Program-made: the position numbers and the translations under genes | The notes under the pieces: generated by a model | Database searches by the model: none | What the model saw: the letters and a program-made list of their open reading frames with translations, nothing else | Told to the model about the DNA's origin: nothing | Source of the DNA: Takakia lepidozioides | Lineage: Eukaryota; Plantae; Bryophyta | DNA: 64,000 nucleotides | Assembly (NCBI GenBank): GCA_030704615.1 | Contig: CM060731.1 | Location: forward strand, 16,802,001-16,866,000 | Direction: 5' to 3' | Part shown: in pieces, positions 7,621-39,500 of the stretch | Numbering within the stretch: the first letter of the stretch is position 1 | How the letters are laid out: the number at the start of each line of letters is the position of its first letter

Positions 7621-8509
7621 AATTTCATGTCAATTCACATTGAAACGGAAATCACATTAGACAACAGTCAATATAGAAATACAATACAACCTAGAGAAAA
7701 ACCAAACAAAAATATAGATTGCATCATAGACGTGGTTGATCAATAAAATCTTTATTTTGAAGCATCATATCGGAGATTCCCGTAATTAGAATCATCAATA
7801 TAATCCAAGAGAGGCTTAAACTTGGGATCGGTGGAAACATTCTGATAAGGCTTAAGTCATATATATCCTCTTTTCCCTGAGATAACTGGAAACGATGCAA
7901 GATTTCTTCATTTCAAGCAAATATTTCTAGAGAACCTTCTGGAGATAGGAAGAGTCTGTGTCAATGGATTCAAACGATTTTAGAATTAGACAGGATTCAG
8001 ACGGGTTCAACACACACTTAATAGCATAATCGTCCATGAGTAGAGTGTTACTCCTGTTGTACTGACCACCAAATCTTTGCCAGACCATCATCAATGGCTT
8101 CAAGAACAGACTCGGTGGGTCGTATTCTGATATAAATTGAGGGTGGACAGAAGTAGGACAAGAGATACAATCTTCTTGAGACATAACGAATGTCGGCTGA
8201 GAAAGACCCCGAAGCATAAAGTCCAGGACAAGCTGCAAGTTCTTGTACATCACTACAACAGATCGCGGTATATATGACTATCCCGTAGTCATAAACGGTA
8301 CATATGACTACAATGACTTTAAGTCGTGCAAACCAAGTGAATACAATGAGTACAGTATGGTCGGTCATGGATGACTGCAGTAAGATGAACCAAGTGATAC
8401 ATCTCACTATCATGTGGCAGTCATACGTACTTCTACCATACATGACTTAGTGTGCTGCTGCAAACTGTACACGTGTCTCTTTTTAATAAGTCTAGGAGGT
8501 TTTGTGGAT

Positions 8510-8750: not shown

Positions 8751-9204
8751 GGGTTGTTTGGAACTTTTAAATGTATTGAACAGTCAGAACCATGACTATG
8801 CTTATCTCATTAGGGTTAGTAGAGACTAGGGTTAGTATTATTCAAATATTGAACAAAGAGAATAACAAAGGGAAGAACAAAGAGACAAAAAATGACTGTG
8901 CAAATGAATGTTTTATTCACATGCAAGAATCATATGAAAGAACAAAGTCAGCAAGTGCAAAGGACAAAACATAGGCACTTAAAGATAACAGTAGATGTAA
9001 GAGCTTTTCTTAAACTATTGCCAGTCAAATTTACAATATAGCACCGAAGTCCCAAAATCTGGCTCCTCAAACAATAGTCTGACAAAGTGCAAAGGACACT
9101 ACATATGCACTGAAGATAACAACACATGCAAAATGCGAATGTCGTTCTACGTTTGCTACTGTTCCAGCACAACAACAAATCAGCAGGATAGGGTGCACCC
9201 ACAT

Positions 9205-9620
9205 TTCGCATGTACACATCCACGAGGGTATTGTTCAGAATGAATGTATTTGGTACAATTCCAGCTCTGACAATGTTACCATGGACTTCTGTGCCTTTTT
9301 CCAGAGCTGTCAGGCTTGCACATGCATTGCAAATGCACAAAGAAGTGATGTGGTCGGGCTTCACCCCTTCCCCCATCATTTGATCATAGGTCTCCAAAGC
9401 CTCCATACCACGCCTCTGTTGTGCATACCCTGCAACCATCGCATTCTACGACACCACATCTCATTCAGCCATAGTGTTGAAAACTCCTTTCGCATCCTTA
9501 ATGCACCCACATTTGGCGTACATGTCCACCAGGGCAATGTTCAGAATGACATCCGGTACAATTACAGCTTTGACGATGTCACCATGGACCTCTTTCTGGC
9601 CCTCTTGGATGAATCTGGAC
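9205..9620 (-). pseudogene. PLS-class PPR gene fragment, CACTA cargo
   Basis: ALVDMYAKCGCIKDAKGVFNTMAE*DVVS*NAMVAGYAQQRRGMEALETYDQMMGEGVKPDHITSLCICNACASLTALEKGTEVHG, with in-frame stops. Confidence 0.9.
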
Positions 9621-9964
9621 CCACACTCTATCCCTGCTCCTTCAGCTATCCATGCCTCTGCACAAATCATGCATACATCCTTGCCTTGCTGCTAGCAGCT
9701 AACGATGACAGCTTAGATTTGTTCTAGGAAACACCCAACTCAACTTATCACACTAGTTTCTATGCTCAATTGCATCTGCTACTCTCTATAATCAGACAGA
9801 CATTCACATTCTTGCCTCGATTGTCCCACCATTGACTGGGTAAGAAAAGTATTCATTCCACAACTTCTCCTCATCTCTGTTACCTGTTTCTGGATACTTT
9901 CCTGTTGTCACATTGGCAGTATCATTTCAAAGTCACTCCAAACTGGTTCACTCAACCAACTAAC

Positions 9965-11240
9965 ATGCAGAATTCAACATGGAAACTTAGGGTCGATTAT
10001 GATAAGAAGGAAAAATATGGTGAAATGTGTTGAAGAAGGTGCCTTCATTAGCTGTGCCTGATTTGTCAATTCCACCGCTACTGCTGCAGCTTCAGCTTCC
10101 AGTTGACCATCTATCCATGCAGGTTGCTAGGCTATTGATCCACAGGGAATCATAGGAGCTGAAGTCCATACATGTCCACCAGGGCAGCTTTGACGATGTG
10201 ATCACCATGGATCTCTTTCCCCTTTCCCAGAGCTCCCAGGCTTGCACACGCATTGCAAACACAAACAAATATGATGTGGTTGGGATTCTCCCCTTTGCAC
10301 ATCATTTAATGCTCACAGTTCTCAAAAGCCTCCATCCCACACCCTCGTTGTGCATATTCTGCAATCATCGCACTCCACAACACCCACATCTTGTTCAGCC
10401 ATACTGTCAAACACTCCCTTCATACATGTCCACGAGGGTATTGTTCATAATGACATGTGGTACAATTGCAGCTCTCACAATGTCACCATGGACCTCTTTG
10501 CCCTTCTCCAGAGCTACCAGGCTTGCACACGCAGTATAAACTATCAAAGGTTCATTCAACCAATAACTTACAGAAATTCAACATGAAAATTTAGGGCCGA
10601 TTTTGAGAAGAGGGAAAAACAGGGTGAAATGTGTTGAAGAAGGTTTCCTTCATTAGCAGTGCCTAATTTTATCAATTGTGCCACTGCTGCTGTGGCTTCC
10701 AGTTCACCATCTACCCATGCAGGTTTATTGTAGCAATGGATCCACAGGGAATCATAGGTAATCTTGTGCTTGAAATCCGGCCCTCTTCCAGCAAACACCC
10801 CAACCCTAATGATGAGAGGGCAAAACAGATTGAAATAGGTTGAAGAAAAAGGTGCCCTCACCAATTTAGGGCCGATTCTGATAAGAGGGGAAAATAGGGT
10901 GAAATGTGTTGAAGAAGGTGCCTTGAGTAGCCGTGCCTGATTTTATCAATTGTGTCGTTTTTGCTGCGACTTCCACAACAGAGATTGAAACGCGGCTTGC
11001 TAAGACCAAGCTGACTCTCCCAAGAACCTTGTAAACATTAGGAAGAATACCAAATCATAACAGGAGCCAAGAGCCCACATTTGCAGGATGGACTAACTTA
11101 GAACTTTACATTTGTACATTAAGAAAAAGCCACACCTTGTGATTGCGGTTATCCCACCATCGTGTAGAAATTCAGGGCCGAATCTGATGAGAGGTCAAAA
11201 CAGGCTGAAATAGGTCGAAGAAGAAGGTGCCCTCACCACA
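9965..11240 (-). repeat. Repeated unidentified captured segment, about 4-5 partial copies
   Basis: aatttagggccgatt...gaaatgtgttgaagaaggtgcc recurs near 9985, 10590, 10810, 10865 and 11170. Confidence 0.75.
10160..10530 (-). pseudogene. Second PLS-class PPR fragment, CACTA cargo
   Basis: Minus strand ACASLVALEKGKEVHGDIVRAAIVPHVIMNNTLVDMYE..., paralogous to 9205-9620, with frameshifts. Confidence 0.85.
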
Positions 11241-12401
11241 TTGTCCTCGACCTTGTGTCATGACCCATGGAGGATTTGACTGACCATGAACACAATAGGA
11301 CCTCTTGTGTATGTTGCTTGTGTCTGTAGTCAGTAATGTCGGATTGGTTTGTGAGAACCACCACGGTGCAGCCAGAAACGGGCGTCGATTGAAACACGGA
11401 CTGCTAAGACCAAGCTGTCTCTCCCAAGAACCTTGTGAACATCAGGAAGAATACCAAATCATGGTACTAACAGGAGCCAACAGCCCATTGCGGTTGCGGT
11501 GCAGGATGCGCTTCGCCCCTTCATGCATCAGTAGCTCAAGAATAGCAAAGCCTCCATCCCATGCCCCTATCCTGCGATCATCGTGTTCCATGACAGGTCC
11601 ATGACACAACACAACAGCTCGATACTAAGAAACTGCGTAGGAGAAAAAGAAAAAGAAAACTAAGTCCCAGCCCTCTCATGGGCAACCCTATAAACAACTT
11701 TTAAGGAAAAAAAAACATTTTGGCTACCAGGCTTGCACTATAAGTCATTCCGACGACTATTTGGTGGTGAGCTCGTGCTGGTCAACCATTGTTGACCAAC
11801 CATCCGTCTAGTGCGGAGCCATGCAGTCATGAGGACGTCTACCAAAGTAGTCGCCCAAAGGACTACGTAGTCACATAGTCATTTCAACGACTACGTGAAA
11901 CTCCATTTGGTCCAAAAATATAGGGAAGTCATGGTCAAAGTCAGAAAAACCATGACTACCACGGTTCGACAGTCAGATATACCGCGATTTGTTGTAGTGC
12001 ATCATGCACCTCCATATTCCTCGACGGAAATGTTTGTTCAACTCTGTCCACATCTCACGATATTTTTCCCGCCTATAGACAAGTCAAAATCCAACAAGAG
12101 CTGGTATCTTGTAGTCTGCCTCGAACATTCAGGGGATATTGTAGCTCTTCTGGTGCTTCAAGACTTTGCACAAAACTCCATTCAGGTCAAAAATTATCAT
12201 GCGCAATCCTTTCGCAAGTGGAGAAATTGGTGCTGCAATCTGTGAGAAATTCATACATCCACTTAGGTGGTAATCAAGATAAACCATGGACAGGATTGAC
12301 ATTGGGAGCAACGTCCACTGGACAGTCGAGGTTCAGGATAATCTTGAGCAGCCATCTACGTTTCAATCTGTTCCAATGAAGTGTCATGAAATTTTTGTTT
12401 T

Positions 12402-13160
12402 CTAAGATAAACCTGTCATTTGCAAATCCCATAGCAAGAGGCATTTGACCTTTGGGTCATTATACGGTCGACATCCTATGGGCTTTTCCACGTTGAATAT
12501 ATCAGCGTCTTTTCCGGATAACCGCAACTCTTCTAGGTGCGGTTTGAGTTCATCCAGAAGAAACATTGTCATTGTATAGGTCGACGAGCGCTTTATATTT
12601 TGGAGGAAGATACCGATCGACTTTGGGTTCAAGTAGGACTTATACATATTTTCTACAGTGTCGATGAGAAGTGTGTTTGATCTGTACGCTACAGTGTCGT
12701 CTACAGTGATAATGTTGTAAAGACGTTTAAGATAAATTGGCACTTTCGGATATTTGGGCCATTCGCCACTGAAAGTTTGTCTATGCTTCACGCAGTCCTC
12801 ATTGCTGAATTCCCTGACCTTGGAAAACCTTCTTCCAAACAAAGCCAGCCCTATATCCAGGACATTTTCTAACGGTCCAGTGTTCCAAAAGTAGACCTTA
12901 AAATGCTTAAGGACCCATTTCAGGAAGTCGTCCAAACCATTTCGGACTGCAAGCTTGAATTATCCAACGCATACACAAGGTTGGGTTATAGGAGGGGATC
13001 TCGAGCCATCTCGGAGGTAAACCTCACCAAGGTAACCGACATCATGAACTAGGACGTAGTATCCTGGTCGACATCCATTCAGTCCCTCAGAGAGGCGATA
13101 CCAATCCTGTGGGTTCACAAATTGGTGATAGTCGATTGGAGGGTGAATCATATCATTCTG
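12402..13160 (-). pseudogene. FCP1/SCP-like HAD phosphatase domain 1, degenerate catalytic motif
   Basis: YVLVHDVGYL (degenerate motif I)...VRNGLDDFLKWVLKHFKVYFWN...NEDC...IYLKRL...SNTLLID...KSYLNP; one stop at 12960. Confidence 0.8.
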
Positions 13161-13683: not shown

Positions 13684-14748
13684 TAGAAGAAGAAGACTCC
13701 GGCCTAAACCGGCGTAACTAAGAGCCACTTTGCCTTGCGGCTACTGCCCCTTTTCAAGAGTGGGCCCTATGTGAGAACCGGTGTCCAGAGGACATCACAT
13801 GACAAGCAAAGGGAGTAGTACCTGTGGCGCAAGGGGTACTAGGTGGTACCCGTGGGGCCCATGGGGTACCCCATGGATACCGATGGGTACCCAAAGGCGC
13901 CCCGGGCACCTATGGGAGGGAAGGAGGGCTGGATTCGAGCTGGCGTTTGTTGGTGATGATAGCAGTGAGAGATCGAAGTGCGGTGAGGTGTATGGCTTTG
14001 AAGCATTTGTGGATGGAAATGATAGGGATTTGGAAATTGTTCTGAAGGGCAGAGATGCTATCATTATGGATGCCCCCTCTGGTGCCAGCAGTGATGATAT
14101 TAAGTGGGCCCGTGGCCCATCCCCGCCATTGGATAGCAAGGATGAGTGGTGCATATTTTTGGTGTTTTTCGAGGATGGAGGAGCTGGGGAAGCGGTCATG
14201 GTAGAATGTAAATTCTATGAAATGTATGGTGATGGTTGGGGATGGTACAGATGGTGGGGTAGTGTTAATGGGGAGGCCCTGGACTAGGAGGATGTCCGGG
14301 CATAGTCTCGCGGGACATGTGCATGACGTGTGAGGTTGGCATCTACAATGAAGTAGCCATGGAGGTACTTATGGTCCGAAGGCCGGCCTTGGTAGGTGCC
14401 AGCATTGATGAGTGTAAACCATCTAGTTTCATTGCGTCGTAATAAGAGTTTATGGATATGCCATACGGCATGGTTATGTCTAGCAATACGAAGTCCGTGA
14501 ATGACGGGGTGGGGACATTCGCTAAGAAGATGGGGCCAGGTATCGCGTGTGGCGTGGATGTGGGAGCAGAGTGGGCAGTGCGGGGATGGGAATAGGGTAG
14601 GCCAGAAGGTGTGTTTGCGTTGATGGCCTATGTACTGGGCGTATCTGAATTTAAGTGTTTGTCGTATTTGTGCGTAAGATGCAACTTTAGTATTCCAGAA
14701 GTGGTTTGATAATTTATGGTGAAGGACAGTGGTTTGATAATTGTCGTC
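13684..14748 (-). mobile_element. 5'-truncated non-LTR retrotransposon 3' end with CCHC finger and restriction-like endonuclease (Dualen/RandI-like)
   Basis: CPLC...DTWPHLLSEC...ARHNHAV, then after a frameshift RLCPDILLVQG...IHFIEFTFYHD...EKHQKY; (TTC)n tail at 13685-13696; GTTACC at both ends (13678-13683 and 14749-14754). Confidence 0.8.
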
Positions 14749-14754
14749 GTTACC

Positions 14755-17700
14755 CTCGATGCCCTCGTCCTCCTCCCTGTGTTCGGAATGTCCTCCTTCT
14801 TCTTCCAAATCTTCATCTTCCACTTCCTCATCATCATCATCGTCTCCGCCGTCAACCTCTTCAACAACATTGTCATTCTCAATTTGAAGCTTCTTAAAAT
14901 TTGCTTCAACTTTTTCTTTGCAAATTTTTTTTTTGGTTGAGTGGTTGATTTCAAGCACTCGAATGTTTCTTGCCTGCAGATAAACCTTGTCAGTAAAACA
15001 GAGGACGCGTTCAATCAAAAATGTAAAAAATATATTTAAAATGCAAACAAGTTTTACACTTACATGAAGGGCGTACGTCAACATCACGCCTTTGAAGATG
15101 TTGACAGCGGACATCCCGTCTCCACAAAACAGGGAGGCCAAATAGTCGTAGGTGTCACCTCGTAGCTCATGATTATAAGTCCTGCACTCTTCTTCAAAAG
15201 CTGATGGCTTCCCTAAAGGCCTTTCAAGAATTGACTGAATTAAGAGCACTGTCGCGATGTGCTCGTCCGGATTCTGCATCTCCTCAGGTGTCGCTGGAAA
15301 AACATAGTCCAGGCACAGGACAGTCCGAGAGAAAGTCTTCGTGCTGTTTTTATAAACATTTTCATACTCCCCCGGAACATAAAATCCCTGTCGGACAAGA
15401 TACAATGTTCTTCCGGGACCATTTTGGATGTAGGAGACTAGATTGGCCGAGGACGGTTGAGTCGAGAAGAAAAAAAAAGCACTCGTGTTCATTTTCCGAG
15501 CCACAAAAGCTTCCAGTATGTTCACATAGTCCTTGGCCTCAAATACCACAGAGTCATCTTCAGAAATTGTATTGACGAACACCATCGCTATGTTGTCAAA
15601 CCGTTTCTTCGGTGCGAGTCGCAGACGGGACTTGGCATCGGCGAATTTTGGTTCCCCGCCCCCCCCCTGAGAGGATAGTGAGACTTGAAACTCGCTGAAA
15701 TAATCGCCATGGCATCCTCTCTATCCTCATAAGCTGCTTTCTTGATGGAGGAGACGTACTTAACAAAAGCGGTCGTGAGTGGTTTTGTCTCCATGTTCAT
15801 CTTAATCTTGTTTTGGATGTAATCCGTCCCCAGTTTGTCTTTAAATGTTGAGAAATCTGCCTTATTGAAGTGGTACTTTTTCTTCACTTCATGCCACTCG
15901 TCCTTAGTGTATGGTTCCGTGCACTATTTGCTCCTTTGAGGCCACCCCAACACTTCCATAACATCGTCGACAATAATCCGACGCATTTTCATGTCGTCTA
16001 TGTACATGTTCATGCCTTGAATTGATTTGTCTTGTCCTTTATAATCTTGAATGGTCAATTTCAAGTCCAAGATTTTTTGCGCAACTTTTATCAGCTGCCA
16101 TCTGTTCAACCCTTGTAGCTTTGCGATAGAAGATTTCGTGAGTTGTTGCTGTTCACCCTTGTACTGTATCCCAAGCGGGTCGAGAAGCTTTCCCTGCTCC
16201 CAGCGTTTGAACACATCTTCCCAGATCTTCCAAATGTCGTCGTCGCAAAGTACTAGGACCATTGTCTCCTTAATGCTGTGTATCAAATGACAGACAAACA
16301 TGAACTCCTGCACATTCATCCATGGAAAAATTAGGTGTCACTCCGACAACAGAAGTATTCTTTAGCATAAAATGAATGTGAATAGTAGATTTTCATTCCA
16401 TAAATGCATACCTTCCATTGTTTCGTCTCGGACTTGGTGGTGTGATCGTTGTATTTCTTTGGCTTCCCCCTCAGGTTCAATAACATTCACGCATGCGCAA
16501 CTTTCTCCGGCATTGTTGTATCAAATTTTTGCGCCTTATTGGGATCGTTGAGGAGCTTTGACAACTTCAGGAGCCTTTGTTCATTGGTAGACCATACAAT
16601 CTTCGCAGGCCACTCCCGGTAGTATTCCTTAACTTTGTTGTCGGCAAGATCCTCGAGAAGTTCCTACTACAGTTAAGGTAAAATGGGTGAGAGAGTTGAA
16701 AGGGTAGGGACATATCCAATTTCGTGGGAACACCAACCTCCACTGCCTAGTGGAGGTTCGTTAAAAAAGAGCGTTGGGTGGAATTGAAGTTTATTACCTT
16801 TGCAGCCACGATGGTGTGTTGTCCACCAATGACGAAGAACCTGGATACGTCCATTTCTTTCCATTGCTTCGGTCACAATGAAGCAATCTTCTCGGGATTG
16901 GAAGGGTTGATTGGCGCAAGATACACCGGATGTTTGGAGTCGAACAAATGAAGCTGGAAGAGTTGCGCTTTCACTTCATCCTTATGCTTGATATTTAACA
17001 GCCTGTAAACCATGCTCCTTGGAGCTAGTTCCATCATGGAAACCTTCTCAAGGAAGGTACTCTCGAATCCAAACGGAAATACGTCGTTGTATTCCTTCGT
17101 GAGCCTCTCCTCCATCTTCTCGCACTTTTCCTTGTTGAAAATCTCCCCAGCTTTAGGTCTCTTGTTATCTGTCATCAATGTTGGATCCTGATCCTCCTTC
17201 TGTTTCTTTTTTCCTGCAGAAGTCCCGGCCTCATTGTCATCATTGTCGGCTGTCGACGACTTGCGTTTTCCCTTCTTCGGCTTTGATGCTTCCTCTAGTG
17301 CTCGCTTCTTGCGAATGTCGTTCCCCATTGCGTGCAGAAGATCCAGAAAAATACTCCAGGCCCTCGACAAACCTACGTCGGTAAACACTGAGCCCTCGTC
17401 AGGAAATCTAAAACCCAGTCCAATGCATTCACTCATCAACGACTTGTTCAGACGACCCACCTCCACTTTGAAACCAAACGCCCTGGGGGTCCTCGCATCC
17501 TTATACATGAACAAAACCAACATCGGGTTTTCCTCTTCAGATTCAAGCTCTATATTGAGAGTTTCTGTGTATTTTAAGTCTGTTATTACTCCAAGACTTC
17601 TGTAATGAAAAGACAGCTTGTGATCAGGAGGTGTACCCACAAGGACGATGCCCCAATCTGTCACCTCTGGGGACAACTCAAAAATTGCGGTATGGTCAGT

Positions 17701-17805
17701 TTTGAAATTTGAGGACTTCCGGCATATGAATGCGCTACAAATATCTCCAATCAATCTCGGGACGCAATCTGGTGGTGTAGGATGTCTTTTGTTACAACCA
17801 AACAC
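14755..17805 (-). pseudogene. Spliced gene: N-terminal domain, basic/acidic linker, ParB/Srx-like domain, helical region, inactive beta-class N4C/N6A MTase-like fold, acidic tail
   Basis: ParB-like PVYLAP...FFVIGGQHTIVAAK|ELL...EWPAKIVW...LLKLSKLLN. MTase-like FDNIAMVFVNT (motif IV degenerate) and YDYLASLFCGDGMSAVNIFKG...ALH|ARNIRVLEIN...ICKEKV. GT-AG introns at about 16666-16798, 16308-16411 and 14974-15063. Stops at 16873 and 15924; frameshift in the C-run near 15660. Confidence 0.6.
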
Positions 17806-18109
17806 AAATTCATTAAATAATAAAATAACAAGATCTCTCTACTAGCATCCATCATTCCATATATAAGAACCTCCACTGGATAGTGGAGGTTCATATGTAC
17901 GAGGCTTTCTACATGAAAGCAGAAATCTTCCATATTATACAGATGTTGTAGAAAGAAACTTTAATGAAAATGAGGCTCATGAGCCATTGAATATATCACC
18001 CTGAAATAGGACAAATCTTCAAATGAAATCTCTAAACCTAATTCCTCCAAAAAATACTTAGGGACTTCTCGCACTATATTCAGACGAGTCTATATTATGT
18101 ACCCAAGAA

Positions 18110-18765
18110 CTACAAAATGCTCCTTCTGATCTCCCTGAGTGTATCAGGCGAATAGTCTGGAGGGGTATATTTCGGGGATCCGGTGATACTATCAGGAGAC
18201 GCAGGGGAGTATCCTGGAGATCCGGAGACGTCCTCGAGTCCTAGGACTCCCTGTCTCGTTGCAGTGTCCAGGGAAAAGTTTGGAGGGTAATATCTTGCAG
18301 ATCCTGTTGTGGATTCAGGAGATACTAGCAAGTAACCCGGAGATGCGGGAAATCCAAAAACGGTCTCTCGTATTGCCGCCAATGTGTCCGGGGAATAGTC
18401 TGGAGGGGTGTATGTCGGATAATCTTGGGAGTAGGCAGGAGATCCGTTGACATCATTGTTTTCATGAACGCTATCTCTTATTTCCGCCAGGGTATCCATG
18501 GAGATGTCTTGAGATCTATTGTTGGGAGATTCGGCTGCGTTCCGCGGGGATTCTACAGTCACATTTTCGTCATTCCCAGACACTTTGTTCGGCTCGGTAG
18601 ACCCCCAACTGGATTTTTCATCTGGTTCTGAAACACCATGTTCTTGATCTGGATGGTCCGTTTCCATCACGTCTACCACACACCGTCTCTTGCTCCAATT
18701 TAAGCTAACGGTCTTGTACTCATCGTCAGACACCGGTTCCCCACCCTCGCTCCTCTTTTTCACAC
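18110..18765 (-). CDS. Disordered S/P/Y-rich ORF with three imperfect ~40-aa repeats containing Pol II CTD-like heptads
   Basis: GSPAYSQDYPTYTPPDYSPDT, ASPGYLLVSPES..YYPPNFSLDT, GSPGYSPASPDSITGSPKYTPPDYSPDT. Acceptor ttttttctgtcag at 18766; candidate upstream donor near 19776. Confidence 0.55.
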
Positions 18766-19899
18766 TGACAGAAAAAATAATCAGAGTGTGTAAGTGGCTG
18801 CCCGAAAGAAATATTAAACCTCCACTGGGTAGTGGAGGTTCTCAATTATCGTATTCTTGTCTCGTTGGAAAATATGTGTCACACTTACAATGTTGCACAT
18901 ATGATTCGAACACTCGTTCCCACATCGTCTCATACTGATTTTTATTTTTTTTCCAGAATTATCCGATTTCGTCCTTACTTTAAGAAATGTCTTTCAGCTT
19001 CCCCATACAGAATTCACGCAAACCTCCACTGGGCAGTGGAGGTTCCAGTTTTTTGTTACTCATGTGCATGACATGGGTCTACGAATAATCTACTCTGGCC
19101 TACACGAAGCCTACTGTTAGCCTATGTCTATTGTAAAATACAAGTACACTAGGCTATCGTGGTTTTTCAAAATTGCCAAATTCGACAAAATTGGATAAGA
19201 AATGAAAATTTCCATTCAGAATTGAATTTGAATGGGAAGAAATGCATCAACTATCGATTGACAAGAACAAACTAACGCTGGATTTGGGGATCAAGAAAAC
19301 GGTTGAGAAATAAACATCCAGACATTTCCGAAACCACTGTCCTCAAAAAACCACCACAATGAACAAAACAAGCAATACAACCAGCACGGTAATCTCCCAA
19401 CCAGAACAAGCACACACAAACCCTATTGCACACAAAACCACCCTACAAACCATCGGTGAATTGAAAAACAACAGTGAAGCAATGAAGCCGGAGTGCACTA
19501 AAGTACATAATGGAGCTGGAATGAAATGAATTGACAGAGAATGAAGCAAGAATGAAGCAAACAACAAAGCAGACAATGAAACAGAAACCTAATGTGCACT
19601 AAAGCACAGACTGAAGCACTGAAGCAGAGATGAGAGTGCACTGAAGACAGTGCAGTGCAGCATAGAATGAAGCAGGATCCAAACAGATTGAATCGAGAAC
19701 AGGCCACATGAATCAAGAGCGGGCCAACACAAAACATGAAACAAAAGACGAAAAGAAGGAGTTTTCAATGTTGTACCTGCTTGTGCCGGCCATTTTGATG
19801 CCCCTGCAACCACAGTCCTTCGTTTGATACTCTCTTCCGCACCTCCGCCTGCCGGTAATTGCACTATGCTCTTGCCTCTGCACTCGTCAATCTCCACTC

Positions 19900-23089: not shown

Positions 23090-23793
23090 AAAATAGTTAT
23101 TCATAAAAATGGTATTAAGAAATACAAAGATTTTTGGATCAAATGAATGTTGCTTGACGATCATTACCGGGGTGTAATGGAACAATACGACCAATACTGG
23201 GGAAATATTCTCGCCGAACTTGATAAGCCAATGTAGGACATTCGGGATCGTATTCAGCTTCTTAAGGGAATTCAAATTGGTCCTCAAATTGGTCCTCAAA
23301 CCATCGGAGGGATGGCATCCAGCCACAGATACTGGAAGATATGGAATATGAGGATGAAGTTCCAGAACCTTACTGTGGCCCTAGGTGCAAGCGTCCAAGG
23401 ATACCCTTGAATACGTTCGAGGATATTGAGAAATGGTTTTTTGTACTCGTTCGCCCTCATGACCCAACGACGTTCCCGGTCTAGATGGGAATAGCAATTT
23501 CAGATGTCATCCGAGAAAGGGAAGATCCTAATTTTAAGAAAGTGAAGGTGGAGTGGTGGAGACCGAAGAAAGGAGGTAACCCCTCAGACTTTGAGAGGTA
23601 CAAGGACTGTTGGTCAAAAGATTGGGAGTACAACCCGTCAGATTTCGCTCAATGGATCCACGTGAACAATGTCATGTGGACAATGCCGCCAGGAAAAAAT
23701 ACGACAAAAAATAGCACCAAGAGAATTACAGCGGTGGAAGCAGTGAAGGCGCGCGCGAATTTGGAGGAGGTTAACCTTCAGCCAGATACCTGA
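23090..23793 (+). pseudogene. C-terminal part of a Trp-rich hypothetical, possibly transposase-associated, protein with a beta-barrel-like domain
   Basis: GIKKYKDFWIK*...YDQYWGNILAELDKP...FVLVRPHDPTTFPV*MGIA...VKVEWWRP...YKDCWSKDWEYNP; the 5' part is replaced by the LTR remnant. Confidence 0.4.
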
Positions 23794-23966
23794 AGGTTGC
23801 CTTCTTGCGAACCACTTTCCGTCCATGGACTAAATGTTGAGGTCATTTCCGGTCTTTTGTTTTAAGATAAAAAAATTTCTTTACGTTTTTTCCCTTCGTG
23901 TTTGCGTTGGGGGATCATTCTTGTTTTTTTCTTTCTGTCGCACTGAACCTCGAGTGAGCAGTGGAC

Positions 23967-24010
<44 letters not shown>

Positions 24011-24399: not shown

Positions 24400-25700
24400 T
24401 TTAACTTAAACCAAAACCCCTACCTTAGTAAACCCTGATCCTCGTAAAACCCTTTACCCTAAAAGACCCTTAAGCATTTATCCCTAAAGTTCCCTTACCA
24501 TTCCTTTTGCAAATAAGATTGTACTATCCAATGTACCATAACCAATAATGGTTATGGACCTTATGGTAATCCAAATCTCTTCTCCCTTCCTTTTTCCGTT
24601 ACTTTTTCCGTTTGTTTTGGATTCACATGCACTTACCAAGTTTATATACTAGTGTGTTTTCTATGTATCTTAAGACCAGGTTCCAACGACGAGTCGTTAA
24701 TTTAAATACTTGTCCGTCTCAATGACTCTTCCATAATATTTGTTTCTCCATTTTTATTTCCAAATTTTTACCATAATTATACACACCAAGTTCTAGTGAG
24801 TGCGAGTCTTCCATATTTGTTTGTCCATTTATACCTTTACCATCACCGCTAAATCCTTACCTTTCGCTTTACCCTTCCCTTAACCCTTCCATAGGCTTAA
24901 GCCGGACCCTTAGTACCCTAAACCATTACTCTTACCATATACCAAAAACCTTTGTGTACTACCATAAATCCAAACCCTAAACCCTTACCTAGCCTTAATC
25001 CTTACCCTAAGCTTAAGCCTGACACTTACTACCTTAAACCATTATTCTTACCATATACAAAAAATCAGGTTAGTGTATCACCCTACTTACACTCCAAACC
25101 AAGTTATTGTACTACCATGTGTGAGTTTTCTATATTTGTTTCCTATTTGTTTGTCATTTTCTACCCTAAATCCTTACCCTTCTTTTTACCCTGGCCTTAA
25201 TCCTTACCCTAAGCTTAAGCCTAACACTTACTACCCTAAACCATTAGTACTCTTACCATATACCAAAAACCAGGTTAGTGTACTACCCTACTTACACTCC
25301 AAACCAAGTTATTATACTACCATGTGTGAGTCTTCCATATTTGTTTGTCCCTTTCTATCCTAAATCCAAACCCTAAACCCTTACCCTTCCCTTTACCCTT
25401 CCCTTAATCCTTACCCCAAGCTTAAGCGTGACCCTTAGCACCCTAAACCATTACTCTTACCATATACCAAAAACCTTAGTGTAATACCCTACTTAAACTC
25501 CAAACCTTATTGTACTACTATGTTACCTCTTGTAAAATTTGTATCATTCTCTTTTAATGTTTTCTTTAATTTTGTTGGATAACGTATGATAGAATGATTA
25601 TATGGATATCAAATTCCCCTTACATTTTTACATTCTATGGAGGTGAGTTGTCCATATTTGTTTCTCTCTTTCTATCCTAAACTTTTTAAAACCCTAAACC
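24400..25700. repeat. Degenerate ~200-bp tandem array rich in CCCTAAA/CCTTA telomere-like motifs
   Basis: About four copies of ccttaatccttaccctaagcttaagcc...taaaccatta...ccatataccaaaaac between 24790 and 25520. Confidence 0.8.
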
Positions 25701-26249
25701 CTTGACCGAATCACCACAAACTTGGACCTTATTGCACTTAATATATCTAGTTACACCCCAAACCTTATTTTACTACCCTAGTAGGTCATCTTCCTAATGT
25801 TTCAAGCTATTTTAATATTTTACTGCCCTTCTCACACCCAAAACATCATTCCAATGGCATTATCTATGAATATTGTGCTTGTCAGCATGAAGATTCAATC
25901 AAAATTACTATCAACTTATATCGAGTATGATAGAGTATGAGTCTACCCCATGTTCGATTCGACACATTTGTTTATCGTGATTACATAATGTAATATTACA
26001 TCATTTGACTTCCCAGTGGACGTTCAATGAATTGTTCAGTACTACAACTTCACAAGCACTTCAATGTCAAATGGACATCTTATATGTCACATTTTGAAGT
26101 AAGTATGACATCACTTGTAATTTCACAAAGTTTAATCACACATTACTGTCCATGATATTATTAACATTTGAATTAATTTTAATTCAAATATATATTAAGT
26201 TTGGTTCGGATTTAAGCCAAAAGTCCAGAATTAGTTAAAATAGGGTTTC

Positions 26250-26800: not shown

Positions 26801-27707
26801 GTCGCTCCCAGATTTCCTTTTTAAACAATAATACAAATAATAATGGTTATGATCTATTATGTTCTCTTTATGCTACCGATACTCAATTATTGAAACTAAA
26901 GCCACTTTTATGCTTTCTACGGCAAAACTAAATCCACCTTTATTTTATGTTCTATTCACGCCCAAAATATATAGGTACGTACGTCTTCCCTTCGTCTCAT
27001 TTTGATTATATTTAGGTTAATAATCCAATAATTCACTTCACTACATCCAACCACTAGATGTAAGACGAAACAATAGCAACTTCTCGGCTTCCTGACCCCC
27101 TGCAGTGTTGGCGCAATGTTCTGCACCGAAGAAGCGGAGTAGAGCCCCAAACCATTTCCATCTCTTCTACAAATCGGTTCTACCGGAGGGAAGTCTGTCT
27201 TCAAAGACAGAGCAGACTTGAGGAAGAAAATGAATACTTTGGACATACTGGGGTCTCATCAAAACACGTCTGTTGGGATCCCAAGTCCGCCAGCAAGACT
27301 TTCCAATAAGGCGACATCGGCATTATTCGATATCATTTCTCCACTTTCTTCTCTTTTCTGTTCGTTTGGTTCTGCACTAATTAACTCCATCTTTTCTCAA
27401 TAGGCGGGGATGCAGCACGATACCTTCATCAATTTCCCTCCGTACAAAGTACTTTCTTGAACCTCCACTTGACAGTCGACGTTCCTCTTCTTAGCAATAT
27501 TAACCATCATCTTGAAACATTCCAAGCCCACAACATTGTACAGGATTTTGCCATTTTTTGCACAATCGTGTTGATCTTCCATACACTCAATCATTTTGGG
27601 TCATGGGTATTTTCATGGCAGAAACATTAATGTCAGTGTGTGATTAACCTACTCATGATAACTTTGTCTCTCATCCTTTACATGCAACAACGGGGAAGAG
27701 GAAACGG

Positions 27708-28525
27708 ATGTTGTTAATTTTGAGTGTCAACAGACTCCTCTACTACCGTCCACCCCCAACCGGCGGTGAACTATTTAAGGAGAAATTTCGTTTCAGGAAT
27801 GTGACACTTCAAGTTCTTGACAGACCGTTTGTGGTGCCTCGGCCTGGAGTCTTGGAGTTTCTGGACCTTGCATTGAAACATTTTCACGTGGCCATTTGGT
27901 CATGCGCTGATAGAGGTGTTCTTTGTAGGATGTCGGAGAGCTTCATCCCCACGAAAATAGCGAAGAAGTTTTGCTTCATATGGTCTGCTGAGGATTGCAA
28001 TGATACCACCGGTTATATCAGGCCCGGGATGAAATATCTCGTGAAGGATATTCGAAGTGTTATTGCCAAGTACCCTGGTAGACCGTTTGCTACGCGGGGC
28101 AAGTACTTATTGTAGATGATGAGCCATCAAAGGGCCTGTGAAACCCACAAAATACTGGATTTTTCCCTTTCTCATTCAAGCCTTCACCAAACGGCTTGCG
28201 TGACCGGGATGATATGACAAAAACAGTATGGCCATATATATCGGAGATGGCTGGAGCTTCAACAGTCGTTGATTACATTAGCGAGAACCGGACAAGGTGT
28301 TCTCAGAAGCCTATTGGTCGAGACCATGCCTGTTGGGCCTGGTATGGAAGATATCTTGATCCTTGTGTTTGGATCCCACAACAAAATGAACCTGATTACC
28401 TTTGTAGGCACGTGGATCCCACTGTTCTGTTGTTTGTTCAGAATTTGATTTTCCAATTTTTTTGCATTTGCATTTGCACTCTTACCTCAACAAATCCATA
28501 TGCAAAACTTCCACTTTGGGCCTAA
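27708..28525 (+). pseudogene. Third FCP1/SCP-like HAD phosphatase gene, degenerate
   Basis: LLILSVNRLL...RPGVLEFLDLALKHFHVAIWS...FCFIWSAEDC...YLVKDI, then a frameshift to LIVDDEPSKGL*NPQNTGFFP. Confidence 0.8.
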
Positions 28526-33503: not shown

Positions 33504-36500
33504 ATGGAGCCAGGTAATCGGACACATCCTGACTCTGACCTATCCATGGGTCATCATTCGAAACCTCTGCCGCATGACTGGTCGGGAGACAATCAGGATT
33601 GGTCACGAAGGACCCTTCCGAATGGGAAGCCGAATGCGGATCAGTGGGCAGTGGGAGCAGAGCGTCGGCCCCCAAGTTTATCATCATACTCTTGGACTGT
33701 TTCAAATGAAATGAGTGGGATGCGTGGTGATCTGGTGGGATTGTCTTCATCGCCACGTGTTAATGGGACTGTCGACGACCTAGAGTCGTATGTTGGAGGG
33801 ATTGATACCAGCAATTTCTCGGCCTCTTTTCCAGCTCTCTTTCAAGCCAAAAGTGAGCTAATTACCCTATCTGTCTTTTCCTATTCTTCAAATTCTTAAG
33901 GATCACACAGTAGGTAGTTACTTCCAATTTGGAGTGTGCTTTCATGCTGCTGCCCGAGGGGACAAGTCTGGTTGTAGGTTTTGATAGATGTTGTGCTCTG
34001 GGGCTCAAGATTGCAACATGTCTGCTCCATTCCTCTCCACATGTGGGAAGGGACGACTTAACATATTTGTTCTGATAAGATGATTCTCATACTAGATTCT
34101 CTCTGATACAGTATCGCAATCACAACACAGTGGTGGAGTTCTTCTGAGGGTGTTACCTTTTTTTGCAGTGAAATTGTCAAACACGGATGCCTGTGTTGGT
34201 CAGTCTGTGGACACTGCAGCCTCGCACCTTATAGGGGACCTTGAAGGCGACGAGGCCTTTGGTTCACTGGAAGAGCTGGAGTTTCACACGATTGGCAACC
34301 TTCTCCCTGATGATGAGGAAGAGCTTTTGGCAGGGGTGACTGACGATTTTGACTGCACTGGTGCCTCAACTAATGCTGAAGAGCTGGAGGATTTTGATCT
34401 CTTCAGCAGTGGAGGAGGCATGGAGCTCGAGGGGGATCCGCAGGATGCTTTGGGCATTTTCATGAGCAGCCACCGGACATTAGATCCAATTGCAGGGGGC
34501 GTTGGGGGCCAGCAAAGTGGAGCTAATGCTCCAGGATCTGTAGCTGGCGAGCATCCATATGGAGAACACCCTTCCAGGACTCTTTTTGTGCGGAATATCA
34601 ATAGTAATGTTGAGGATACAGAACTCCGAGCTCTTTTTGAAGTATGGTGCTCTCCCCTAGACACTCAAAACTTGCTTTTTTAATGAGTTTGAAATGATGT
34701 TACTTCATCCTCTTCTTCAGTTGTTTCTATGCTACTCAAAGAGTTTGTCTTGTGGCAGCAAGACAAAAAGTAGTACAGCCAAATATGAGAGTCTTTGTAT
34801 TAATAAGCTTCTCAAGCCTTACTTTGAACATTCGCCAAGGTGCCTGGATTGGGCATATTAAGGAACATGGTTTACCAAGAAGGTTGTTTGCAAGCTAGAG
34901 AGTTGAGGAGCAAAGTAGGTACAAGTCATAGAGAGGGTTCGTTTGCATAATAGCAAAATTATCAAAGAAGGTTGTTGCCAGGACAGAGATGATGGTGTGA
35001 ACCCCACCAGATCCCGATACTGAGATGATAGACACCTTCAGGGGTTCTGTACCTCCATCTATGGACTGGTGATGAAGCCCCCAGAGTTCAGGGTCTTGCC
35101 ACTTTGTGGTGCGCAAGAGTGGAAAGGAATAATCACTGAATGGGGTGTGTGATTGTACTGCCCTCGCAGTCACAAGAAGAATAGCTGGCTGAGTTTCTCC
35201 CAGTGGATGGATGAGAGAAATTACCAAGCTGTCAGGATCTGTGTTTGTTTGTTTCATCCATCCAGCATGATATTAGTGAGTATCAAACTTCAGTCGTAGG
35301 CATCCCTATTGGACTGCAGTAACTATTGTTTCCAATGGCATCCTTACAAAACGATGGAAGTTGCAACTTAGTTGCCAGGCATGAGATTCAACAGCGGGCA
35401 GCAATTGTTATTGAGCCCAGCCAAACAGACATTGTTATAATCTGCTTCCAACAGTGCCTTGTAATGTACAGCGATTTTGATATTTCCTCATGCACTAATG
35501 TACAGGTCGTAAAGGTTAAACTTCTATACTTTGTGACCGACATCACAAATCGACTTGGTTGAGTCTGGTAGGAGTTCTCTGCAAAATTACAGTGAATTAA
35601 GAAGCAACTTGTATGTTACTCAACCTTTGAGGTTCCATGAGGATGCTTGATTTTATTCCTGGATGATTGCAGCAATATGGTGCAATACGCACCCTGTACA
35701 CAGCTTGCAAGCATCGGGGATTTGTGATGATTTCTTATTATGATATACGGGCCGCCCGCAGTGCCATGCGTGCTCTTCAAAATAAGCCGTTGCGGCGAAG
35801 GAAGCTGGATATTCATTTTTCGATTCCCAAGGTCCCTGTTTCTGGGTGCCCTCATTGTCATGCCAAGTCAAGTGATGGTTGATGCAAATCTTGTCAGATT
35901 CCAGCATCTCATCTCTTTGTGCCACCCAACATTATTCTTAAAACTATAATTTAACAAATAGAGCTTAGCATAAGTTTGTAGCTGTGGTGGAGATTCCACA
36001 GACCGTGATGGAGACACTTTGTGCTATCTGCCTAAACAGAGGTTAGTGTCAGGTTGAATTGAAGGTCTTTATGTGTGTGTGGATCAGGATAATCCTTCAG
36101 ATAAGGATATAAATCAGGGCACCCTGGTGGTATTCAATCTGGATGCATCTGTATCTAATGATGACCTTCGGCAAATTTTTGGTGTTTATGGAGAGGTAAA
36201 AGAGGTAAGCTGCAACGGGACATGGTCTCACCTAATCTCAAATATGCAGACAGAATGGTGGAGAGTAAAAGCAATGTATGTTGGATGGATGGAATTCTCT
36301 TGCATTGCAGACTACTTTGACTCTTCTGTTGTCCAATTGTGTTGGTGACCATTCCTTAATTCTTATTGTAAGTTCTTTTGTTTCCTACAAGTAACACACA
36401 GGTTGTAGATGTTGGGAGGATTGAATTGTTTGCTAGTGGTTAATTACCGTGCTGCAAAAGTCTTCCTTTTGGCTTGTGCAGCGTATGCTCTATGATGAAT

Positions 36501-39500
36501 GCCGTCTGATTTGTCATATGTCTTTGCTATCACCTGCAGTCTGGCATTGTCCCACATCCTCTTCTGAGATGCTCTTGTATGATGCCGTACTGTATTCACA
36601 AATTTTTCCCATCTGAGGTTGCATTGTCATTTGACAGATTCGGGAGACACCACATAAGCGTCACCACAAATTTATTGAATTCTATGATGTGAGGGCAGCT
36701 GAGGCTGCGCTTCGGGCCTTGAATAGGAGTGACATAGCTGGCAAGCGCATCAAGTTGGAGCCCAGCCGCCCTGGCGGAGCTCGCCGCAGGTATGTCCCCC
36801 TTCTATGTATTCCCTCTGAAAGGCCATAACGGCGTCAAAACTGCTGGCATACCAGTCTAGAAGTTAGGGCACCAGTTCAGACTGTTCAGTTCAACTCCAG
36901 ATCGTCTGGGTCCAAATTTCAAAACCAGAAATATAGAGTTTTAAAGGAGCATTTTAAGGCCAAGGTGAGTACATGTGATGTTCTTCAAACTGGTTAACTG
37001 AGACCACAATGAGGTGAGGACTGGCATATTTACTGCAAACTGGTGGCACTGTTAGCCAGCTGTTTGATAATGGCTGGTAGAAAGTAGCCCCCACACTTGC
37101 ATTTGGGTAGTTCAGTTGGCTTGCTTCACCTATTATCGATTATCTCACCAGCATGATGGATGCGTGATGATTGTACGGACTGTGATGGGTGCCTAATTGC
37201 AGGTGCTTGCTGTTGCTAGCCTACAACATGGGTGAGCTTAGAGGATGCTCCCTGGACCCTGGATGAACTGAAACACCTCTTTGAAATCGCATCAGAGAGG
37301 TGTTTTTGCAGATAAAGGGACTTAGTGGTTCACAGCTATATGAGGTTTAACCCCTCAATGCTGGGCAACCTGAAACAGGTTGCCCCGGGCCCTGCCAGGG
37401 GGGTTTGGTGGTAAAAATGACCTCCAATCAACATGTGCTTTTTACAAGAGTTGAAGCATATCGCACAACAAATACTTTAATTGACTCTTCGGACATTTGA
37501 TCCATGGTCAAGCAGGAAGTGAAGAGATTCGTGACCAAAAAAATACAAAGAAAGAACTAGATTTTGAGGTTGTTTCCTGGCTATCAAATGTTGGTAGCCT
37601 GATTGATCCTCATCCCTTTTTCTTGAAAAATCTTTTCCATCATTCTTGTACTGTTGCATGTACGCAATTGCAAGTGATCGAGTTGAAAAGGTAGAGCTGT
37701 TGCAATACTTGTTCACTCCTGTCAAATCCGCCGGAATATGCTCTACAAAGTGGCAATCTCGTTTGTAAGATTACTTTCTTTCCAATAACTGGAAAGTTGT
37801 TTGTGGAGTTAGATCTCTATTTTTATCGACATGTAATGGTTAACTTGGAATAACTGGAAATGTCGTGAATCATTATGAGTCTTCTCAAGAGTATAGTACT
37901 GAATCGCCAACCACTGTTGTGCCTCAAGGATTGATGATCTTTGCTTTTTGCTCGGTATACTGTATGCAAAACATTTTGCATGTCTACTAGACCAACTAGT
38001 GGGCTCTCCCAATAATGGAACTTCTGAGTCCCGTCTTGTGTACAAGTCACTTATCTGCCGTTTTTGTGGTCATAAGCAGTTTGTTACAGCAGCTGAGTCA
38101 GGAGCTGGAGCAAGAGGAGAATCGTCCCCTCCGACAGCAATCCCTCTCCCCATTGAACAACTCTCCTCCAGGTTGCAAACATCTGCCATCCCTCACTGTG
38201 GTCTTGTGTTGTATAAGAAGAGACCTCCCCGTTTACTGGGCTAGGGAAAGAATGCCACAGTGAAAAGCAGGGGAGAGAGGGTATCAGCCTGAAATCCTCA
38301 GGGAGTCAGGAGTGAAACTATGATACTTGTCATATGCAGGGCATTCTGTGTTACCCAGCTCCTTATACTATTAGGTAGCCTTCAGCATCTCAATGGTGTT
38401 ATGTTTATTTTATTCTACTCGTAGGGCTGTAAACTGATGGTGGTTTCATGATGCACATTCGGGACTCTTTTTTTTAGATTTTCATGGTTTGGTAACTAGA
38501 GAAGTGTCTTGTAATGTGGGTACATCTCCAGGCCATCCTTCTCCATGGGGTGCTGTTACCAACTCTGCAGGAGAAAATGGGACAGTTCGTGGCCTCCATC
38601 CTTCACTTTCCCTTGGAAGCTACCCATCTCTAGTCAACAAGCCACTGAATGGAGTAGTTGCAAGCTTGCCTCCTCATATCTCTTCCCCCATAAGAGTTGG
38701 GACTATTGGCAGCCATGTGGCACAGTCCACCCAGATGGAAGGAGGGCACTCACTGGGGCAGATAGGCCTGGGTGTGCATCGGTTACCCCATCATCACCCG
38801 CACTCTCTTCCAGAATATAGCAAGGGTCTTATAAATCCAGGGCACTTCAACCTTTCTCCTGGGTCGGGTACAGTGGGTTCCAGTTCAGCAGCTCTGAGGT
38901 CCCGTGAATCTTTGGAAGGAGGTAGCCGCCTGCAGCAGACAAACAGTGGGGGACCAAATGATGTTTTGTCATTTGAACATGCCAGTGGAGGTGAGTTCTT
39001 TCTTTTGCTCTAACTCGAGGTATGCTTACAATTGCAAATGTCTTGCAGACCTAGTAACTCAGCAGTTGGCATTTCTAGAATTAATGGGGAGTCGAAATTT
39101 CCGTATTAAAGATATATTTAGAAATAAAATTTGGGGCGAAAGCAAGAACTGTGCATAGGGTCCACTGGAAAGTGCATGGATCTTATCATCGACCTTCAGG
39201 TGATGGGAAGGTATTGAGTGTGCCAGGGTTCTGTAGGTCTGTGGTTGTTCCCTGTGTCTTGCCATTGCAGAGCGATATCAGCAGTTGGCTTAATCTGAAT
39301 CTTAAATTTGTGAATGGCAAGGCACGAATTAGTTCCAATCTTGTCCTGTCACGGGCTGCCGTACCTCACGGTGCTCCTAAGTAAAAGGTGGTTGTGCCTA
39401 TCATTACCATGCAGCTCAAAGAAGCCCTAGTCAATTGAGTGTTGACAGTTCTGTACGTTGTACCTTCTATCACTAATCAGTGCTTTCCTGTCTGGTGTTA

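Follow-up and report, generated by a model that had tools for sequence, protein, structure and literature searches.

A broken, repeated gene with putative ParB-like and methyltransferase-like domains in a likely DUF7869/Sola1-type transposon of Takakia lepidozioides

Structure, decay and copy number of the gene

The window, by which we mean the whole 64,000-nucleotide stretch of Takakia lepidozioides DNA that was analysed, carries on its minus strand a gene with three introns (Table 1). The first conserved exon encodes, in order, an N-terminal domain, a charged linker and the first half of a ParB-like domain, and its true start is further upstream than 17838; a low-complexity frame upstream, without a match in related loci, is possibly an exon of the same gene. 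The motifs quoted in the preliminary description of this DNA, which had noticed a ParB-like domain fused to an inactive methyltransferase fold, are all located on this strand within the range that it named: FFVIGGQHTIVAAK ends at 16798, the piece WPAKIVW..LSKLLN lies inside 16663-16412, FDNIAMVFVNT starts at about 15600, YDYLASLFCGDGMSAVNIFKG..ALH ends at 15064 and ARNIRVLEIN starts at 14973. The 90-nt intron that it had removed is real (GTAAGT..TGCAG, 15063-14974), with an alternative acceptor possible in other copies (TAG at 14988-14986, variant at 14988), and to it we add two more, at 16797-16664 and 16411-16308. After about 14721 exon 4 runs into an unrelated repeat, for which a Pfam search gave no match and which, from its Cys/His motif, we presume to be LINE-like.

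The gene copy in the window is dead, since it holds three in-frame stops and a frameshift. The stops are TGA at 16875-16873 in exon 1, where relatives have Lys or Arg, TGA at 16489-16487 in exon 2, where relatives have Arg, and TAG at 15926-15924 in the helical region of exon 3, where relatives mostly have Gln; the frameshift lies in a G run at 15667-15654 in exon 3. Given the residues that relatives carry at these sites, the three stops would fit C-to-T changes at methylatable cytosines in a methylated copy. Contigs of run X6, guessed to be RNA, cover 16.1-17.4 kb at a likeness of at least 80% and say nothing firm on expression.

In a public DNA run (X1), summed contig depth, a rough guide and not itself a copy number, was 1,940-2,320 over 14.9-19.9 kb as compared to about 46 for contigs in the flank (6.0-6.7 kb). 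It was similarly flat across most of 6.6-25 kb, higher-copy insertions excepted. The gene region is a repeat, present, as this depth suggests, in tens of copies. A very high-copy repeat with a depth above 100,000, presumably PPR-gene-like fragments, is inserted in the element at 8900-11700.

Table 1. Features of the gene and its surroundings, in window coordinates
Feature	Position	Strand	Remarks
Second NIF phosphatase-like fragment	7900..8260	-	Gene's strand; NIF E 0.029; family NIF1 E 1e-4
Broken NIF/HAD phosphatase-like gene	11890..12959	-	Downstream, gene's strand; NIF E 2.9e-4
Separate higher-copy repeat at gene 3' end	13691..14721		From depth; loose ends at 13691, contigs ending at 14721
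Exon 4	14722..14973	-	RVLEI, last strand of methyltransferase-like fold; helix and acidic tail
Intron 3 (90 nt)	14974..15063	-	GTAAGT..TGCAG
Exon 3	15064..16307	-	Helical middle region, then bulk of methyltransferase-like domain
Methyltransferase-like domain within exon 3	about 15660-15064	-	VNTIS at motif IV position, NIFKGV at motif I position
Intron 2	16308..16411	-	Splice position common to related loci
Exon 2	16412..16663	-	Final strand and helices of ParB-like domain
Intron 1 (GT..AG)	16664..16797	-	Contains perfect palindrome, 16735-16758
First conserved exon	16798..17838	-	Ends GGQHTIVAAK
N-terminal domain, unassigned fold	about 17691-17398	-	Family profile match, E 0.0012
Low-complexity reading frame	18110..18766	-	YTPPDYSP repeats; between palindromes
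DUF7869 transposase C-terminal remnant	23102..23790	+	Divergent from gene
Third NIF phosphatase-like gene	27648..28357	+	Frameshifted; E 1e-17
Palindrome starts	7487, 12310, 13346, 16735, 17868, 18817, 19021, 23946, 27460, 29135		Pattern search

Related loci and domain assignments

Among 1.84 billion proteins the exon-1 piece had 14 relatives at E<=0.001, mostly exon-sized fragments. An alignment of seven of these retrieved 80 plant-type loci, 42 of them non-redundant once near-duplicates were removed. The window gene shares with this family its domain order and all three intron positions, and its pieces match the related loci in order (ParB-like part in 72/80, exon 2 in 16/80, helical region in 34/80). 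The C-terminal and N-terminal domains had no direct tblastn match in the related loci; profiles made from the in-frame pieces of those loci, with the window row left out, locate in the window both the C-terminal domain (15594-15073; E 1.3e-4 in a six-frame search) and the N-terminal domain (17691-17398; E 1.2e-3). Judged from these comparisons, the pieces of the putative gene exceed chance matches. We considered the N-terminal domain as a second methyltransferase and rejected this, as relatives are without those motifs.

Where the match in a non-redundant related locus extends to the end of the exon, the next two letters are GT in 34/36 cases at intron 1, 25/28 at intron 2 and 20/25 at intron 3. 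Two distant relatives, P0013 and P0016, have uninterrupted sequence across the intron 1 site. Because of these conserved GT dinucleotides and continuous relatives, the predicted splicing model appears sound. Many of the stretches from related loci carry stops or frameshifts. Word-index protein searches, which are weak, found no full-length protein, no match of the C-terminal exon to longer or near-length proteins and no match of the ParB-like alignment to longer proteins, and no relatives were found in viral contigs or phage records.

For the C-terminal domain, a structure model was made from a 31-row alignment with the intron included (pLDDT 57). Seven of its top ten Foldseek matches are beta-class N6A/N4C DNA methyltransferases or MTA1 and the remaining three a second kind of methyltransferase, with a best E of 4.7e-3 and no match at E 0.001. 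Twelve rows aligned at least 139 residues in VIA-align, eleven of them beta-class enzymes or MTA1 and the twelfth M.HhaI; the best, M.MboIIA (Z 6.4, rmsd 5.1, 160 aligned), has the same motif order, and is tied by a small Alba-like protein (Z 6.4, 77 residues), no Z reaching 8. Identity in the structural alignments with beta-class enzymes is 8-16%. Sequence searches of Pfam, PHROGs, NCBIfam and PDB gave no match for either the C-terminal or the ParB-like domain, the ESM Atlas gave only 0.76 for the C-terminal exon, and hhalign against a profile of 42 beta-class enzymes gave a probability of 0.3%, which is chance level; that same run paired IFxGG with DPFxGSG and EIN with GIEIN, the expected register. 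The structure models make it likely that the C-terminal domain has a beta-class methyltransferase fold with the motif order IV to I. Of this claim, as first put forward, the structure matches stand at moderate strength, and the sequence profiles do not bear it out.

The family alignment places motifs IV and I in the register that had been proposed, and the erosion of both motifs extends beyond the window. In rows that are pieces from selected non-redundant loci among the 80, [DNS]PP[YFW] occurs at motif IV in 0/16 (the window has VNTIS, related loci mostly CTTH or STTH) and FxGxG or DPFxGxG at motif I in 0/17, so the domain is predicted to be catalytically inactive family-wide, as had been suspected for the window copy. 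F-x-G alone, with Gly two residues past the motif-I Phe, is found in 11/17 rows, and the strand that follows retains its acidic residue (VLE). A second candidate for motif IV, EAILLDTHY of related loci, was rejected, as the alignment places it in the preceding strand.

Alternatively, intact copies might encode active enzymes that place 4mC or 6mA marks on the element carrying them, either with an unusual motif or with canonical motifs in unsampled copies. The available part of one description predicts that the methyltransferase domain of an Ectocarpus counterpart makes 4mC or 6mA (PMC12477816), all copies observed so far are decayed, and the persistence of the F-x-G Gly and of the VLE acidic residue also speaks for this reading. 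We nonetheless regard it as distinctly unlikely, given the counts of zero for both catalytic motifs, and given that divergent subfamilies consistently have TTH or something close to it at motif IV, a pattern for which decay of PPY by C-to-T changes does not account.

With regard to the ParB-like region, the family has GGQH, NGQH or SGQH where ParB has its GxxR CTP-binding motif; GxxR is absent, and the pairing of GGQH with AGERR scores no better than chance. Further along, the region has a strand and helix with a conserved Asn. Pfam, NCBIfam, PDB profile, profile-profile and fold searches gave no significant ParB match, profile-profile comparisons with YhdJ-like, YbdM-like and canonical ParB sets did no better than chance, and a structure model of the P0013 domain (pLDDT 47) is unusable. 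For P0013 the ESM Atlas gave scores of 0.95-0.96 to DUF3723 clusters and to a eukaryotic cluster without a name, with a ParB_N cluster at 0.92 and rank 25 (family on 35% of cluster members); residues 165-368 have a language-model likeness to DUF3723 of 0.96, over 195/256 features. The DUF3723 HMM (PF12520) matches none of the family members, and no paper treating both DUF3723 and ParB was found in the literature searched. A ParB-like N-terminal half is plausible on this basis, and the likeness, which rests on the GGQH motif and one language-model match, is the weakest link of our reading. Thus the ParB/Srx core with a GQH variant, as originally described, keeps its motif and gains the Atlas match, and finds no significant profile or fold match. 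As predicted from its motifs, the window gene belongs neither with the active beta-class enzymes nor with canonical ParB proteins.

Transposon surroundings and palindromes

The C-terminal part of the transposase of related loci matches the window at 23341-23778 (E 3e-14 and 2e-10) and at 23102-23300 (pairwise E 2e-5); the catalytic core was not found in the 64-kb window. A transposase core matching DUF7869, with the motifs QMDDCVKDNKN..VVGHTHEDID, lies upstream on the opposite strand in L039/L040 and L049 (PF25273, E 2.4e-35 for L039). L039 and L049 belong to different protein clades and have the same divergent arrangement, as does the window with its remnant. Such a transposase was found in 2/42 non-redundant loci, or 2/20 among those with at least 3 kb of upstream flank. 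A DUF7869 transposase with a GHTH motif we take to be Sola1, and the host element of the gene is likely a giant DNA transposon of this DUF7869/Sola1 type; the part of the literature available to us lists Sola1 for Physcomitrella (PMC9033089). A comparison of 1-13.5 kb with 19-36 kb revealed neither the terminal inverted repeats nor the 4-bp target-site duplication expected of Sola1 elements, the ends of the element being undefined and the copy disrupted by insertions, and scans for EnSpm and KDZ motifs gave chance-like matches only.

The surroundings further include NIF phosphatase-like genes, and two NIF genes recur in the related loci (19/42 and 17/42 non-redundant loci), where they invariably share the strand of the gene. 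Next to the third NIF gene of the window lies a broken frame at 26950-27576 (-), with a palindrome inside and no Pfam match. Degenerate telomere-like tandem repeats, with units such as ACCCTAAA and CCTTACCC, occupy 24400-25800 inside the element, with the transposase remnant on one side and the third NIF gene on the other. Outside the element, at 34000-40300 (+), lies a host gene which, from its motifs, presumably resembles a MEI2-like RNA-binding protein.

The preliminary description had proposed a domesticated bacterial or phage architecture, and we have weighed the corresponding possibility that the window locus is the pseudogene of a domesticated host gene of such origin. In its favour, the three spliceosomal introns keep their positions across distant plant-type loci, and liverworts have domesticated beta-class enzymes (MpDN4MT1). 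Introns are common in plant transposon genes. Domestication appears highly improbable here: this copy is broken and one of tens, it sits amid a transposase remnant, NIF phosphatases and element-specific palindromes, many related-locus stretches are likewise interrupted by stops or frameshifts, and the full-length protein escaped the (weak) searches.

A 24-bp palindrome, AAC[CG]TC[CG]ACT-N4-AGT[CG]GA[CG]GTT, occurs in ten copies between 7487 and 29158 and nowhere else in the 64 kb. Four copies are perfect, as compared to none in 100 shuffles, and the ten degenerate copies compare to none in 30 Markov shuffles. Intron 1 contains one copy, and three more closely precede the first conserved exon; the other six of the ten are away from the gene. 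At 23946-24009, next to the transposase 3' end, one palindrome copy leads directly into a stretch of about 43 T, which suggests a retroposed or polyadenylated end.

The window type of palindrome is absent from the related loci, which have types of their own. The stretch 1.0-2.3 kb upstream of the exon-1 end, for which five of the 42 non-redundant loci lack sequence, holds at least three units in 25/42, often in arrays with a 45-bp period, and smaller arrays follow the stop codon. The consensus is GAAACGCCTAGTGGCCACTAGGCGTTTC in the main clade (143 units, 10 loci) and TGATTTGGTGGCCACTAGATCA in a second clade (31 units, 3 loci), both patterns having been drawn by eye from those same loci. A motif-free count over 35 loci gave 1.9 palindromes per 1.2 kb upstream, 0.52 in flanks and 0.14 in shuffled sequence. 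Two protein clades thus have two palindrome types and the window a third, a pairing that is suggestive of co-evolution, three pairings being too few as proof.

Other palindromes of the related loci deserve a brief mention. The recurrent pair GGAGTCAAA..TTTGACTCC and GGGACTCCCA..TGGGAGTCCC, about 200 bp apart, is found in L027 (5536-5756), L061, L056, L032, L064 and L046 and is probably a small separate inserted element. A second array of the locus's own palindrome lies about 8.2-7.8 kb upstream of the exon-1 end in L021, and one lies downstream in L075; these distant arrays possibly mark neighbouring copies or other parts of the element. All three palindrome types contain a half-site like YRGTGG, with opposite polarity in the window (CCACTR-NN-YAGTGG) and in the related loci (GTGG|CCAC, without a spacer), and this shared half-site may be chance.

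Proposed role and comparison with known systems

We lean towards reading the locus as a broken copy of an accessory gene of a likely giant DUF7869/Sola1-type transposon, whose intact protein would be non-catalytic and would bind the palindromes of the element. The ParB-like N-terminal half and the helical middle might recognise these palindromes as a dimer, as ParB does parS, and the dead methyltransferase fold might serve as a second DNA-contacting or partner-binding module. By marking and coating the DNA of its own element, the protein would allow it to resist host silencing and to stay transcribable and mobile. The window copy itself was probably silenced and then decayed. This anti-silencing role is a proposal, modelled on the VANC proteins of VANDAL transposons, which are element-encoded, reportedly act on their own element through short motifs and are said to counter silencing; the analogy is functional only and implies no homology.

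A rather unlikely alternative retains the transposon accessory gene and separates it from the palindromes, which would be bound by the transposase or have arisen as by-products, for example as small satellites or hairpin signals. On this view the N-terminal domain would not read specific sequences in the manner of ParB; it could be a relative of the DUF3723 or DGQHR type, with a nuclease or nucleotide-binding function, for instance. The chance-level ParB profile tests and the pLDDT of 47 for the domain model agree with this, as do the replacement of GxxR by GGQH, the Atlas ranking, in which DUF3723 and unnamed clusters come first and ParB_N stands no higher than rank 25, and the six window palindromes that lie away from the gene. 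The related loci argue for a link between gene and palindromes, their arrays lying directly before the first conserved exon and just past the stop codon, and so does the independent report, in the part available, of a ParB-like gene with inverted-repeat arrays in red-algal Plavaka elements.

Returning to the protein that binds its own element, the closest precedents are algal. According to the portion of the report available, the transposon Sola1-1_Ec32 of Ectocarpus, 21.5 kb in length, carries on the strand opposite to its transposase an accessory gene whose single product, about 1,100 aa long, combines a ParB-like with an N4C/N6A methyltransferase-like domain (PMC12477816). Compared by description, the present gene is alike in joining both domains in one gene on the strand opposite a DNA transposase in a giant element, here of at least 20 kb; this combination is seen in the window, L039/L040 and L049, subject to the weak ParB call. 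It differs in belonging to a land plant, in the family-wide loss of the catalytic motifs, in the two or three NIF phosphatase genes and in the palindrome sites, palindromes being unmentioned in the part of the Ectocarpus text available.

A second precedent is the Plavaka element of Bostrychia, in which, as far as the accessible text describes it, the ParB-like accessory gene PAG3 has adjacent tandem inverted repeats and is proposed to bind its own element, on a ParB homology that is likewise weak (HHpred e-value 0.29; bioRxiv 2025.02.11.637652). By description, PAG2/PAG3 resemble the present gene as ParB-like accessory genes beside repeat arrays; in contrast to it, in Bostrychia a 2OG oxygenase is the fusion partner of the ParB-like domain, the methylase is encoded by another gene along with a SET domain, and the carrier is an EnSpm/Plavaka element (same source, same portion). 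As far as these parts of the algal papers go, ParB-type accessory proteins that bind and modify their own transposon are put forward as a proposal (PMC12477816; bioRxiv 2025.02.11.637652). By analogy, the window gene resembles the Ectocarpus and Bostrychia accessory genes in how it would work, in a land-plant, pseudo-enzyme form.

Algae offer a precedent for the architecture, and what the window holds is a dead copy of the gene. The present analysis adds its setting among transposase and phosphatase genes, palindromes that differ from clade to clade, inactivity throughout the family and the lead to DUF3723. No report of such a gene from a land plant was found in the literature searched, mostly outside subscription journals. 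Among enzymes, the predicted fold and the motif order IV...I are like those of M.MboIIA, M.PvuII, M.RsrI, CcrM, M.BceJIV, N4CMT and MpDN4MT1; unlike these beta-class DNA amino-methyltransferases, the window family is without DPPY/SPPY or FxGxG and without a profile match. The loss of the catalytic motifs throughout the family suggests that binding, not methylation, may have been selected in land plants. With three protein lineages and three palindromes, cognate versus non-cognate binding is directly testable.

DUF3723 (PF12520) is, in the part of the work available, a conserved cargo gene of fungal Starships (bioRxiv 2021.12.13.472469). It is the best named Atlas look-alike of the P0013 ParB-like region and, on that description, shares with the present gene a recurrent place as an accessory gene of giant transposons; it differs in being fungal, in belonging to tyrosine-recombinase elements and in the failure of its HMM to match the window family. 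The likeness, a language-model one, is a lead only. It leads us to a joint reading, possible though doubtful, in which land-plant DUF7869/Sola1 transposons use ParB-parS-like self-recognition and share the DUF3723 module with fungal Starships. A ParB-like clamp would load at lineage-specific palindromes and co-evolve with them, the dead methyltransferase fold and the CTD-phosphatase-like partners would act on the coated DNA and counter silencing, and the ParB-derived module (DUF3723) would be a general device of giant eukaryotic transposons. For the conserved Starship gene, the lead offers a hypothesis of function. A further ParB fusion, of ParB-HTH to a group-2 Dam in chlorophytes and chytrids, differs from the window gene in architecture, as far as the available text describes it (PMC4738411).
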